DNA of 64,000 nucleotides from Terriglobia bacterium (GTDB taxonomy: Bacteria; Acidobacteriota; Terriglobia; 20CM-2-55-15). The stretch is from the NCBI GenBank assembly GCA_963664115.2, contig CAXWPJ010000010.1, forward strand, positions 192,001-256,000, read 5' to 3'. Both the position numbers and the translations under genes were made by a program. Of this stretch, positions 7,223 to 61,217 are shown one piece after another (position 1 is the stretch's first letter; each line of letters starts with the position of its first letter). The notes under the pieces are model-generated. The model was not told the DNA's origin. It did no database searches and saw only the letters and a program-made list of their open reading frames with translations.

Positions 7223-7409
7223 TGCAAGCAGCTTTCGCGGGCTTCGAAGCCGGCCCACATCCTACCTTTATTGATTCAATAGCTTACGGGTCATACCCCC
7301 CCCCGCGCGTGAATTCTTCACAAACACCTCAGGTCATTGGTTTTAAGGCGTTCTGGTTTGGGCTCAATACCGCTAATTCGGTGTGTTTGGTTTGCAGTCT
7401 ACGTTCTCA

Positions 7410-7437
7410 AGGTCCGAGAAGATGATTTCTCAGGACT
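7410..7437 (+). repeat. dif-like site A1
   Basis: aggtccgagaa-gatgat-ttctcaggact, followed by a short kinase-tail remnant (aatcaaggcacc). Confidence 0.85.
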
Positions 7438-7483
7438 TGAGGCTCGAATCAAGGCACCGTCGTACCAACACAGAGAAAACACA

Positions 7484-7622
7484 TTATTCTGACAAGGACA
7501 CTACGCCAAGGACTTCATCAACTGTCGTCAACCCTTCGAGAAGCAGATTCTGGGCGTATTTCTGGAGGGTTAGCATGCCGTCGTTGACCGCACACTCTCG
7601 AATAAGGTCTGGCTTCGCACCC
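7484..7622 (-). pseudogene. C-terminal fragment of a GspE/PilB-type ATPase, truncated by an IS3-family element
   Basis: IRECAVNDGMLTLQKYAQNLLLEGLTTVDEVLGV resembles the GspE/PilB C-terminus. The fragment abuts the IS end. Confidence 0.6.
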
Positions 7623-8935
7623 TGAACCGCCCCGGGTTTCCCGGAGACAGTTTTAGTTGAGTCCGGCCTCGACGAGGCCGGACGGCTGTTCCTGATAATA
7701 CATCTGTTCAAACTCCGTTGGAGGGATGTCGCCAATTGGTTCCAGCAATCGACGCTCGTTGTACCAGGAGACCCAGTCCAGGGTCGCAAACTCCACATCG
7801 TCGAGTCCCTTCCAGGGCCCCTCTCGTCGAATGACTTCGGTCTTATAGAGGCCGATGACCGATTCGGCCAGTGCGTTGTCGTAGGAGTCCCCGATGCTTC
7901 CGACCGAAGACTCAATCCCGGCTTCAGCCAACCGCTCCGTGTAGCGGATCGACAGGTACTGCACGCCACGATCGCTGTGATGGACCAGGCCTTCGGTGTG
8001 GGACCGCGACCAAAGTGCCTGCTCCAGCGCATCCAGAGCGATGTCGGTCTTCAGCGAGTTGGTCGCCCTCCAACCGACGATCTTCCGGAAGAAGACGTCG
8101 ATTACGAATGCCACGTAGACGAACCCACGCCACGTTGCCACATAGGTCAGATCCGCCACCCACAGCTGGTTTGGACGGCTCGCCGTGAAGTTTCGATCGA
8201 CCAGATCGGGCGGCCGTAGGGCCGCTTCATTTGGTATCGTCGTCTTGAACTTCCGACCCCGAACGACTCCCTGAAGCCCCATTTCCCGCATCAATCGCGC
8301 CACGGTGCAACGGGCCACGCCGACCCCTTCCCGGTTCAACTGCTTCCAGACTTTACGGGCGCCGTAGACCTGTCGATTCTCACGCCAGACACGGTCAATC
8401 TGGACTCGAAGCTCCGCGTCTCTCTTCGATCGATCCGGTAGTCGCTCCGGATCCCTCCGCCGTGATTCGTACTCGTAGTACGTCGACGGGGCAATCGGCA
8501 GCATCCTGCAGATCGACTCGACCCCATACCGGTTCCGATTCCGATCGATGAACTCGGTCACCACTTCCCTCGGCGGTCGAGCTCCGCCTGCGCGAAAAAT
8601 GCCGATGCCTTCTTCAGGATCTCGTTCGCTCGCTTCAGCTCACGATTCTCCCGCTCCAACTCCTTCAGCCGTTGCTTCTCCTCGCTGGTCAGCCCAGACC
8701 GCTGTCCTGTGTCACGCTCGGTCTGCCGCACCCACTTCCGCAGAGTCTCCGACGTACAGCCGATCTTCGAAGCGATCGACGCAATCGTCGCCCATTGCGA
8801 GCCGTACTCTCCCTGGTGCTCGAACACCATCCGCACTGCACGCTCTCGAACTTCCGGTGAATATCTGCTTGGTCTTCCCATGATGACTCCCATCCTCTCA
8901 AGAAATGGAGTCTCCGGGAAACCCGGGGCGGTTCA
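7623..8935 (-). mobile_element. IS3-family insertion sequence (IS51-like), orfA 8558-8881 and orfB 7653-8564
   Basis: Inverted repeats tgaaccgccccgggtttcccggagac / gtctccgggaaacccggggcggttca. HTH orfA and DDE orfB ([23 protein letters not shown]). No target duplication seen. Confidence 0.95.
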
Positions 8936-8938
8936 TAC

Positions 8939-9559
8939 TTGTCTCAAACGTCGGCTCCCCAATTTGAAAGGCTGGACCCTGCTCTGTACTGGTTTCACCG
9001 GCAGATTGTTCAGCAGGGCAGGCGCAAAGTGAAATCTATCGAAGACGGTGCGATTCTGCCGTCAGGTACCGTATTCCACAACGTCTCACTGTCGTTCGCG
9101 GGCATTCCAAACGCCCAACGGCGAGTTCTCAGGTCAAGATGGGTAGAGCAGATGCTGGAATCCACAGCGAGAGCCGAAATCGTGTTTGTCGATCCGGATA
9201 GGGGTATCGAGGGTGCCGGAGCTCGACGTTATGGGAGAGATGGGCCGAAGTATGTGTATCTCGACGATCTTTCTAGATTCTGGAGGCGGGAACAGAGTCT
9301 GATTATCGATCAACACTTAATTCTGGGCGAAGAAGGACACACAGAAATAGCGCATCGATCGGCGGAACTGGCAGAAGCTCTTGGTGTCCATCGAGTCTGG
9401 TCATTGCGCTTTCGCCGAGGGAGAGGCCGTGTGTTCATTCTGGTTCCCCAAAGACGAAATGAGGTCTGGATGGTTCAGCGCCTAGTAGCATTCGCCAGAC
9501 TGTGGTTGGGCCACTTTGAACTGATCGATTCGAGTCACGGATGGACGGATGATGAGTAG
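8939..9559 (+). CDS. Hypothetical protein, probably 5'-truncated by the IS
   Basis: ORF starts at the IS end. Contains VFVDPDRG. Confidence 0.45.
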   Translation: MSQTSAPQFERLDPALYWFHRQIVQQGRRKVKSIEDGAILPSGTVFHNVSLSFAGIPNAQRRVLRSRWVEQMLESTARAEIVFVDPDRGIEGAGARRYGRDGPKYVYLDDLSRFWRREQSLIIDQHLILGEEGHTEIAHRSAELAEALGVHRVWSLRFRRGRGRVFILVPQRRNEVWMVQRLVAFARLWLGHFELIDSSHGWTDDE

Positions 9560-9818
9560 CGTGACCACCACTAGCGGACGATATTGGGATGTGACGCAGT
9601 TGTCCGAGGACCTCGGTGTCCCGAAGACATGGATCTACGACCGCACGCGTAACGATGGTCCCGGAGTAATCCCGCACCTAAAATTCGGCAAATACGTCCG
9701 CTTCGATCCAGAGTCCGACGCGTTCCAGCAGTGGCTCAAGGACCATGAATTTGGTGTAGGCAGTGGTTTGAATGACCAACCGGCGTTGCAAGCGATTGAT
9801 ATCAGAAGGCGAAAATGA
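9549..9818 (+). CDS. Excisionase-like HTH_17 DNA-binding protein
   Basis: WDVTQLSEDLGVPKTWIY...IPHLKFGKYVRF. Lies upstream of the integrase. Confidence 0.75.
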   Translation: MMSSVTTTSGRYWDVTQLSEDLGVPKTWIYDRTRNDGPGVIPHLKFGKYVRFDPESDAFQQWLKDHEFGVGSGLNDQPALQAIDIRRRK

Positions 9819-9890
9819 CGCCTGCCACATATCTGCCACAGAATGCATTGACACCTTAATAAAACGTATATACAGTATCGTCCAGTCGCT

Positions 9891-10106
9891 ATGCCAAAAA
9901 ACCCGTACAAACCCAAACATCAGGTGAAAGCTCGGATGATTCCCATTCGTGTATCTCAGGAAGATTCTGAGTGGCTGGAAGAGGCATCCAAGAAGTTTGG
10001 AGTGCCGATCAGCCATCTGATGCGGGAAGGTGCGCGGTCATACGTCAAGCGGCTGGAGCGGAAAGGCGAGCCAACAAGAAAGGAGAGTAAATATGGCTCG
10101 TCGTAA
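9891..10106 (+). CDS. Small ribbon-helix-helix-like protein
   Basis: IPIRVSQEDSEWLEEASKKFGVPISHLMRE pattern. Overlaps the integrase start. Confidence 0.55.
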   Translation: MPKNPYKPKHQVKARMIPIRVSQEDSEWLEEASKKFGVPISHLMREGARSYVKRLERKGEPTRKESKYGSS

Positions 10107-60113: not shown

Positions 60114-60254
60114 CGTGACGTCTCCTTTTGCGGGTTCGACGCGTCGAGTCACCGTGGATCGGTGTCTGGCGGTGAACCGAGTTTGCGATCCAAACTTCTC
60201 TCTATCAGGCAAGACAGAACCGCCATGCGGGTCGTCCTAAACTCATAGTGCAGT

Positions 60255-60330
60255 CAAACACCTCACTCATTCCACCCCTGCCCAAAAGTGTGAGGATCTC
60301 GTAGTGGCCGAGTTTGGCGCCAGATTCCAT
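60255..60330 (-). pseudogene. Kinase N-terminal remnant (about 25 codons)
   Basis: MESGAKLGHYEILTLLGRGGMSEV. Confidence 0.8.
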
Positions 60331-60412
60331 CGTTCATAGTGTGTCGCTGAAAAACCGTGAAAAACTTGGTAAACGATACTAGAGGTGGGTGTTAGGCGCT
60401 ATCAAATTCTCA

Positions 60413-60506
60413 AGTCCTGAGAAACTTTGTAGGTAGTTGAGAAATAGGCCAATTATTGGGGTTTTTGGGGAATTCTCAACTTCCGCGAAGATGATTTCTC
60501 AGGACT
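60413..60506. repeat. Site pair B5 (60413-60437, shortened spacer) and A13 (60479-60506)
   Basis: agtcctgagaa-act-ttgtaggtagt-tgagaa, then acttccgcgaa-gatgat-ttctcaggact, then a tail remnant at 60518-60557. Confidence 0.8.
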
Positions 60507-60611
60507 TGAACTCGCAAATCATGGGACCGGCACGCGTTCCTTCAGTTCCTCAAACCAACGTCAGGCTGTTTTATACGTTCACGTTCGCAGCTCCAACGCT
60601 CACCTCGAAGA

Positions 60612-60839
60612 TTACGAATTCTTCTGGTATGGAGATACCTTCGCCGCACTGTAATCAGAGCGATGCCCGCATTCAGATTCGCTGCAGGTGAGAAACAGCT
60701 GTGCCAGCGGCTCGAACGGACCGTGTCCTTCGGTTCGATCCAGACCGAACAAAATCGGCGAGTGGCATTTCGCACAAAGCACACTCAAGTACCATCGCTT
60801 CTCAGTCGATTTTGGAAATCGGGAAAACTGCATAAGCAC
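60612..60839 (-). CDS. Small putative zinc-ribbon protein
   Basis: CAKC and CSESEC motifs. It is the only ORF between A13 and A14. Confidence 0.45.
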   Translation of the reverse strand: MLMQFSRFPKSTEKRWYLSVLCAKCHSPILFGLDRTEGHGPFEPLAQLFLTCSESECGHRSDYSAAKVSPYQKNS

Positions 60840-60867
60840 ACGGTTTTGGGGGATCGCGCAATTCTCA

Positions 60868-60895
60868 ACGTCCGAGAAGATGATTTCTCAGGACT
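60868..60895 (+). repeat. dif-like site A14 with kinase C-terminal fragment (60908-61060, minus strand)
   Basis: acgtccgagaa-gatgat-ttctcaggact, then YDITPDGERF...INIVLNWFEELKERVPVP. Confidence 0.85.
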
Positions 60896-61217
60896 TGACC
60901 TCGAAAATCAGGGGACCGGAACCCGCTCCTTCAGTTCTTCAAACCAGTTCAGGACGATGTTGATTTGGGGGACAGGGGCATCAGTGTCGCCAGTGTCCGC
61001 CACGGCGGTTGTCTGAACGAACACGAACCGCTCGCCGTCGGGAGTGATGTCGTACGTTGGAGCTAAAGTAATCTCGTTCAGCTTAACCCGAGCATCGCGA
61101 TCGGAACCAGGGATTATAGTTGACATGCACGGGGGAGAGGATCATATTTCGGGGCCAAGGAGCAATTCAAATCGGAAATTCCGGTTAAGTTGCATCCCGG
61201 TTCAAGGAGGTCTGAAA

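Follow-up and report, generated by a model that had tools for sequence, protein, structure and literature searches.

Arrays of gene modules bounded by 40-bp palindromes in a Terriglobia bacterium: possibly a third class of recombinase-driven gene cassettes

A 64,000-nucleotide stretch of the genome of a Terriglobia bacterium (Acidobacteriota; assembly GCA_963664115.2, contig CAXWPJ010000010.1, positions 192,001 to 256,000 of the forward strand), here called the window, carries an array of gene modules between positions 7404 and 60901. The modules are delimited by palindromic sites of two classes, A and B, and many retain the ends of a gene from one Ser/Thr kinase family. Bacteria capture genes to a large part through gene-cassette systems. 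To our knowledge, only two are well described, integrons and the dif modules of Acinetobacter, and we know of no settled account of how integron cassettes are first made. The arrays described here are a variant of recombinase-driven cassette systems and possibly a third class, with the assignment of an enzyme being tentative.

The array opens with a class A site at 7404-7443 (+, spacer GATGAT). Further full class A sites follow on the same strand at 20438-20477, 25780-25819, 30731-30770, 38730-38769, 44736-44775, 52418-52457, 53057-53096, 56430-56469, 59247-59286, 60473-60512 and 60862-60901, the last of the window array. Several are followed by the 3' tail of a kinase gene, which runs to about 25886 behind the site at 25780, to 30808 behind that at 30731, to 44815 behind 44736, to about 52544 behind 52418, to 53142 (13 codons) behind 53057, to 59350 behind 59247 and to about 61054 behind 60862. 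The site at 56430 lies 6 bp from the stop codon of an intact gene of this family (56476-59145, -). This archetypal cassette gene encodes an 889-amino-acid (aa) Ser/Thr kinase with a PD40 beta-propeller, and a 94% copy lies between a B and an A site at G000:C5, G000 being the source genome. Four orphan kinase tails (31478-31509, 34058-34119, 35516-35657 and 35891-35962, all -) have no detected site adjoining them and are likely the marks of fused modules.

Class B sites lie on the opposite strand. One is full (42641-42680, -, spacer TGTCGT), and beside it a promoter-like leader and a kinase 5' fragment of 79 homologous codons, fused to foreign DNA, occupy 42328-42640 (-). Another (27936-29226, -; parts at 27936 and 29187) is split by an insertion sequence (IS) of the IS30 type with its transposase at 27964-29160, and beside it a promoter-like leader with the first codons of a kinase occupies 27837-27935. 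Three are degenerate: one at 30673-30712 (-), which an 18-bp linker joins head to head to the A site at 30731; one at 39505-39544 (-), head to head with a degenerate A site at 39560-39599 (+); and one at 60407-60446 (-), within a segment (60258-60446) that also holds a promoter-like leader and a 24-codon kinase start. A further class A site (42700-44198, +) is split by an IS110 element, which leaves the left half at 42700-42724 and the right arm from 44182 on either side of a transposase gene at 42734-43876. In a related site of the same superfamily (54366-54405, +, spacer GGGGAC), foreign DNA interrupts the right arm at about 54395. Another leader with a kinase 5' fragment (55768-56429, -), homologous to about codon 120-130, is fused to other DNA near 55981.

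A preliminary description of the window had listed 14 copies of a 28-bp, dif-like site with the GATGAT spacer, all in one orientation and separating blocks of unrelated genes. The spacer does read on the forward strand in all 14, but only 12 are full sites: the copy listed at 42706 is the left half of the IS110-split site and that at 39566 has a damaged left arm. The estimate of about 20 sites holds once the five class B sites and the related site at 54366 are added. These five inverted sites contradict a uniform orientation, and the blocks are not unrelated, as one kinase family supplies the 3' tail at the end of many of them or the 5' start at their beginning. The class B sites, the kinase origin of many modules and the genome-wide extent of the arrays had gone unseen.

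A profile built from 12 window copies was used to scan G000 (4.89 Mb), which has the congeners G001, G002 and G003. It returned 278 matches in G000, with both arms present in 167, while shuffles of the six G000 contigs longer than 300 kb gave 1, 5 and 6. The conserved unit measures 40 bp rather than 28 and has a 17-6-17 structure, TTCTCAA-n-GTCC-GAGAA, a 6-bp spacer, and TTCTC-A-GGAC-TTGA plus three variable bases; the arms are inverted copies of each other, offset by one base. G000 sites fall into 28 clusters of at least three sites, which span 576 kb in total, about 12% of the chromosome. The scan of the genome and its relatives proposed in the preliminary description thus finds arrays genome-wide and the site in three congeners. 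These 40-bp palindromes are very probably sites of the tyrosine-recombinase type.

A pattern search gave 120 matches in G000, 80 in G002, 33 in G003 and 9 in G001, a single match in each of two genomes of another genus, and none in the other 35 of 41 genomes. The shares of exact matches were 85/120, 33/80, 14/33 and 2/9, a comparison biased by the derivation of the pattern from G000. With the spacer left free, matches occur in 9 of 35 genomes of the order. Comparisons between congeners used site counts of 107 for G002 and 57 for G003. Among named public records, the exact site occurs only in those labelled Terriglobia bacterium, and none was found in the viral contigs searched. No published account of the system was found in a search that left most subscription papers and supplements outside its reach. 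Further dif-like sites of the same superfamily, with spacers GCCGAC, GCCGGT and kin, stand 10-60 bp behind some A sites (G000:C2:755313, C12:429565, C12:542965 and C5:204741; L149-L154).

The full sites of G000 comprise 141 of class A and 26 of class B. The GATGAT spacer that typifies class A is found in 124 of the 167, and class B spacers follow the form NNTCGT (TGTCGT, GGTCGT and variants). Class A sites stand in direct repeat, and class B sites are inverted relative to them. Neighbouring pairs of shared orientation are A-A in 82 of 83 instances in G000, 41 of 42 in G002 and 19 of 19 in G003, and inverted neighbours are A-B in 32 of 43, 14 of 19 and 11 of 11, respectively. Head-to-head pairs have linkers of 16-19 bp or of 108 bp. 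Direct pairs could represent fused modules; in G000 they number 83, against 43 inverted pairs.

Modules have changed neighbours at these palindromes. A comparison of 196 full sites found 16 pairs alike in the left 200 bp alone and 10 alike in the right alone, with similarity stopping at the site (the pairs are not independent of one another). Flank-sharing pairs from different genomes differ on the other side in 20 of 20 cases, and over 152 sites the left flank shows no linkage to the right. It is the joining of identical flanks to unrelated partners, both within and between genomes, that identifies the sites as the places where modules were shuffled, and these swaps occur at sites with like spacers. 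The window supplies examples. The module at 20430-25816, between two A sites, recurs at G000:C12:548706-552692 (100%/97%) without its Mutator IS and with other neighbours, and the 389-bp module at 60476-60898 is found at G000:C11 and C6 (96%), again among other neighbours. That at 52445-53093 is present in G001 (97%), G002 (95%) and G000:C5 (96%), with other neighbours, and that at 36070-38766, which ends at a site, is shared with G002 (L020, 94%), there too among other neighbours. The preliminary description had proposed to test whether module order differs between strains with breakpoints in the spacer; neighbours do differ at the sites, and some breakpoints fall in kinase tails or at the kinase start. 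Several multi-module stretches are duplicated at near-100% identity, either as real duplications or as assembly overlaps (G000:C6:24-48 kb against C11:1-8 kb and 55-58 kb; C2:0.5-5 kb against C2:162-167 kb; C5:8460 against C9:1291135).

The sites are tied to one gene family. Behind the right arms of class B sites, a promoter-like leader follows in 27 of 36 cases, together with the first codons of a Ser/Thr kinase gene; behind those of class A, a kinase 3' tail follows in 85 of 169; and 43 of 205 class A left arms face a kinase leader. The archetypal cassette consists of a B site, a predicted promoter, a Ser/Thr kinase-PD40 gene and an inverted A site. Only four intact site-flanked kinase genes were found, including that at 56476-59145, while homologous 5' fragments range from 15 to 267 codons. 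Of 53 kinase tails found by a hidden Markov model, 34 comprise 16-30 codons and the remainder reach up to full length. At about 55981 the kinase fragment is joined to DNA that is kinase-free in G002 (L030, 98%), with a possible 10-13-bp microhomology at this one junction. Together, the kinase scars at module ends and the fusion at 55981 make it likely that many modules derive from a kinase cassette in which other DNA took the place of the middle part. A systematic donor search for tail junctions yielded few usable pairs, and Ku (end-joining) was not found in G000-G002 or G004.

Of 41 relatives, 33 have the kinase family. In G004, G007, G013, G021 and G048 it is flanked by diverged 17-6-17 sites, and none was seen by eye at more distant kinase loci. 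Among 702 open reading frames (ORFs) of the clusters, the kinase alone is common to all four locus sets, and no array-specific recombinase emerged from them. Matches of the kinase in PADLOC are to generic kinase domains only and do not point to a defence role. Class A-A modules (n = 60) span 0.35-13 kb, with 49 ORFs running one way and 27 the other. Long, perfect palindromes resembling repetitive extragenic palindromes (REPs) stand directly behind kinase stop codons at L131 and L132 (G021 and G013). At least five kinase-propeller genes form a tight tandem with no sites between them at L135 (G017:C1:4718001-4738000).

Mobile elements home to the sites. IS30 copies end at a site arm in 6 of 6 cases, the IS110 type of the window in 6 of 8 and a third IS in 7 of 7, against 2/55, 3/76, 0/26 and 1/19 for four other IS families. 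The third IS is 1.5 kb long, has a 386-aa frame that looks IS110-like by eye, and lies in the GATGAT spacer in all seven copies, including G000:C11:1100-2630. Elements of the IS1111 types target attC, according to the available text of PMC11187229. Some IS30 copies are flanked by two left or two right arms (G000:C2:317945/319196; L023:3426/4677; L024:6626/7877), as would be expected if recombination between IS copies had inverted the DNA between sites. The IS load of G000 is heavy and includes 76 DDE_Tnp_1_4, 55 Mutator, 26 DDE_3 (IS630-like) and 19 rve (IS481-like) copies.

A second kind of guest, absent from the window, is an IS91-like element of about 2.5 kb that carries an IntI-related recombinase and a Y2 transposase. 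All eight copies in G000 (C1:92926, C1:107675, C2:196451, C12:35350, C12:158198, C12:486987, C12:569262 and C3:2939; L155-L184) begin at the second base beyond the spacer of a site of the family type, and each subfamily lands on one spacer class. Among 30 loci from 15 genomes, the element end was found in 25, and GGT, CGT, GAC or GAT precedes it in 24 of these. In most elements right-arm-like sequence resumes at the far end; the copies with recombinases of 301 and 309 aa are damaged or rearranged there. A long hairpin with bulges forms at the right end of the 301-aa element. An inner repeat at the right end resembles the left arm and spacer of the targeted class. The recombinase scores 187 bits on the IntI model, below its cut-off, with catalytic residues intact and no I2 insert. 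A family of IS91-type elements with an upstream IntI-related recombinase is noted in the accessible part of bioRxiv 10.1101/542381. The IS91-like elements are read as guests of the arrays, and their fixed register supports the sites as recombinase substrates. A cassette platform rearranged at tyrosine-recombinase-type sites, the central proposal of the preliminary description, is therefore upheld by the flank swaps and by the site-specific landing of recombinase-bearing elements.

Among 27 integrase-family matches in G000, the candidate enzyme is a Xer-like tyrosine recombinase of 316 aa with intact catalytic motifs (G000:C5:52189-53139), here called C5. Its gene has an outward-facing B site on either side, at a distance of 91-93 bp, and both sites are followed by a leader and a kinase start. 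The gene is thus divergent from a B site, a predicted promoter and a kinase start, an arrangement that corresponds to the intI-attI-Pc layout of integrons. This recombinase was initially set aside because G002 and G003 lack the gene. Homologs were then compared over 96 distinct upstream regions and 480 shuffles with an arms-only profile, since an earlier upstream score had contained a spacer bonus. Matches scoring at least 7 that point away from the gene occurred in 11 regions and those that point toward it in 5, against 10 of 480 shuffles. Spacer endings typical of the family were found in 10 of 18 upstream matches scoring at least 4 that point away, 1 of 12 that point toward the gene and 1 of 30 from shuffles. 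Among the 15 closest homologs, seven are preceded, at a distance of 37-46 bp, by a site with the spacer GCCGGT or GCCCGT; five score at least 5 (spacer bonus included), compared with 8 of the 81 others. This enrichment of upstream sites is what makes C5 the best candidate. A generic palindrome score did not separate the homologs' upstream (30/106) from downstream regions (26/105; shuffles 13), and downstream of them there was no clear second site class.

C5 falls in none of the IntI, XerS and XerH families. Its bit scores are 61 for the IntI model (cut-off 265) and 60 for the XerS model (cut-off 267), and its match to a XerH chain (E 1e-5) is weaker than those to XerA and XerD. A tree of 25 recombinases carried long-branch warnings and was used for grouping only. 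All five genomes queried for serine resolvases have them. At G000:C9:714590-715873 lies an IntI-like gene that includes the integron-specific insert, about 190 kb from the nearest array.

The host's own XerC and XerD might instead recombine the sites, which would make the arrays chromosomal dif modules of the Acinetobacter kind with a diverged site. XerC and XerD are the sole tyrosine recombinases common (79-92%) to the three site-richest genomes among the loci fetched, and the left arm of the sites agrees with the host XerC arm at a mean of 7.1/11. In addition, inverted pairs facing in or out recall the C and D modules described in the available text of PMC13141974. The right arm, however, agrees with the XerD arm at only 5.1/11 (both means over 142 sites), conservation reaches 17 bp per arm, and an inner ATAA or TTATG core occurs in none of the 142, where the same text takes one TTATG change as inactivating a pdif site. 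The true dif is a single copy at G000 C2:108145, at a skew change, and is kept in 5 of 5 relatives; its right arm is identical to that of the Frankia dif as printed in the accessible portion of PMC3025954, with which the Bacillus subtilis dif quoted in the preliminary description also agrees. The host xerC and xerD genes pass their NCBIfam cut-offs. Since the host dif is separate and single-copy and TTATG and ATAA are missing from all 142, the array sites are distinct from the host dif; the earlier reading of them as dif sites for the host XerC/XerD is not supported, and recombination by XerC and XerD is unlikely. Three extra near-copies of the host dif in G002 (L075, L078; G002:C1:478199, C2:3627227 and C2:3801332) possibly stem from elements that use the host Xer system. 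Very improbable is a role of the palindrome as a transcription-factor operator, a terminator or a single-strand hairpin of the attC or REP kind. The site does fold, each arm having one bulge (the best copy reaches z -4.7 and -5.3), and a promoter-like leader begins shortly after the B site, while the A site closely follows the kinase stop codon. Weaker copies, however, fold at z of about -2 only, the would-be loop (the spacer) is the most conserved part, and partner positions show no compensatory change: at positions 15/26, G-C occurs 54 times and C-G 8 times among 153 sites, where about 58 and 9 are expected if they vary independently. This absence of covariation is the reason for reading the site as double-stranded DNA and not as an attC hairpin; moreover, operators and terminators neither mark swap points nor attract recombinase-bearing elements.

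Two further readings concern what moves the modules today. The IntI-related recombinase of the IS91-like elements might shuffle the arrays, using the sites as attI-like double-stranded targets. The fixed landing register, the single spacer class per subfamily, the intact catalytic residues, the missing I2 insert and the presence of the elements in 10 of 11 site-bearing genomes are all consistent with this, as is the ability of IntI to recombine attI with attI, reported in the part of PMC4792948 that is available. We nevertheless regard it as quite unlikely, because in the assembly of G003, with 57 sites, neither a recombinase of this kind nor a Y2 gene or an end of the elements is present, the right arm that the elements carry is unlike that of the sites, several relatives land at poor sites with only the core in common, and IS30 and IS110 types home to the sites too. 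Alternatively, the sites could be relics of an earlier recombinase, with present shuffling driven by homologous or short-homology exchange over the site and the adjoining 30-100 bp of tail or leader. Inner-arm polymorphisms decoupled from both flanks, the breakpoints in tails or at the kinase start, and the lack of the candidate enzyme in site-rich genomes fit such relics. They would, however, leave unexplained why arms and spacer are near-invariant in four genomes, why the A/B orientation rule exists, and why site-bounded copies of modules appear at distant loci, and we consider this reading distinctly improbable.

The arrays are thus likely to be shuffled, as arrays of kinase-derived modules, by a dedicated Xer-like recombinase rather than by XerC/XerD or an integron integrase, and we lean towards the C5 family as that enzyme in the overall explanation. 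C5 would act on double-stranded sites and would exchange only like spacers, A with A and B with B. Exchange between A sites in direct repeat would excise, insert and duplicate modules, with excised circles as intermediates. A module between inverted sites would be exchanged in one piece by an A event paired with a B event, and the spacer mismatch would block its inversion. Cassettes would be born when foreign DNA replaces most of the kinase gene through short-homology joins, with promoter, start and tail left as scars; the lengths of the fragments and the one junction suggest this step. Homologous exchange in shared tails and leaders adds to the shuffling, as the tail breakpoints show. Genomes that lack the C5 gene would hold orphan arrays, comparable to integrase-less attC clusters, or be served by an enzyme in trans.

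Several observations weigh against this explanation. The C5 recombinase was not found in G002 or G003, with their 107 and 57 sites, and the fetched arrays of these two genomes contain no remnant of it; in G001 it is broken, and it is present in genomes without detected sites. Sites in G002 are not measurably more decayed than those of G000 (p=0.24; for G003, p=0.03). The upstream regions of most homologs (85 of 96) lack a site with a score of at least 7, and among the 30 of 39 integrase loci that were fetched, XerC and XerD are the only ones with orthologs in all of G000, G002 and G003. The variable arm positions 8, 15 and 26 are unlinked from both flanks, where a clean crossover in the spacer predicts otherwise; this is why the crossover base cannot be placed and why gene conversion or homologous exchange must also act. 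In eight public read runs, unitigs break at repeats and joints have sides of about 30 bases or less, so that neither a circle nor a population variant was shown. Finally, of the 60 A-A modules, 26 carry a tail, 10 a leader and only 6 both ends at the thresholds used.

The arrays share features with known systems and depart from each. Like them, the dif modules of Acinetobacter have double-stranded sites with a 6-bp spacer and exchange thought to need like spacers, and modules between inverted sites facing in or out recall a part of the pairs seen here (PMC13141974), as well as chromosomal module islands (PMC12907356) and ISs that home to pdif (PMC10132070), as far as the available parts of these papers describe them. 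In contrast, the present sites are 17-6-17 without a dif core, with similar arms offset by one base; they have two main spacer classes, direct A-A pairs outnumber inverted ones, about 170 sites lie in 28 clusters, many modules carry kinase scars, and a dedicated recombinase is likely. With integrons and clusters of attC lacking an integrase (CALINs), as presented in the accessible text of PMC8618304, the arrays share tandem cassettes, enzyme-less arrays in some genomes and, for C5, a gene divergent from a site, a predicted promoter and a first cassette; IS110-type parasites of the sites are another likeness. Unlike integrons, they have no attC fold signal but a conserved sequence and spacer, their cassettes often have a predicted promoter of their own and several genes or fragments in both orientations (49 vs 27), and no IntI with an I2 insert lies beside them. 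The XerS/difSL system, in the available text of PMC5357621, resembles the arrays in the extra base of the right arm after the inner five and in a recombinase gene beside its own site, as for C5. The array sites differ from difSL and difH in being multi-copy and dispersed (167) rather than at the terminus, in a host that has XerC/XerD and a canonical dif, and the candidate enzyme falls in neither the XerS nor the XerH family. Compared with IS91-family elements that carry an IntI-related recombinase, of which G000 has eight, the arrays are the hosts, as those elements are guests inside their sites.

The array starts 1.3 kb from a groEL gene (window 4494-7403). In the first module, a phage-type integrase (10030-11283, +) was considered as the enzyme of the array and rejected; integrase loci fetched from the site-rich congeners G002 and G003 include no ortholog of it (25-38% identity), and it was judged a passenger. 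DUF6152 genes have been captured as cargo at 54395-55981 and 38951-39463, one with a 283-aa partner, and the pair is kinase-free in G002. A TonB-dependent receptor gene (39642-42257) is inserted opposite to the kinase direction and has paralogs (83-85%) at G000:C10:47-52 kb and in a G002 array.

Arrays that occupy about 12% of a chromosome are invisible to scanners for attC or dif. Because dozens of modules keep graded remnants of their founder gene, the birth step of a cassette becomes readable from sequence. It is conceivable, if somewhat doubtful, that the system is a third gene-cassette class with one recombinase and two non-interchangeable double-stranded sites, seeded by a sensor kinase and parasitised by IntI-related rolling-circle elements for which its sites serve as attI-like targets, and that it offers a model for the step from double-stranded to hairpin sites at the origin of integrons. 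If the explanation is true, the enzyme and its two sites, which by nature would not cross-react, could be put to direct use in cassette exchange. For the bacteria themselves, the expanded family of site-flanked kinase-propeller genes may, speculatively, represent a diversifying repertoire of sensors.

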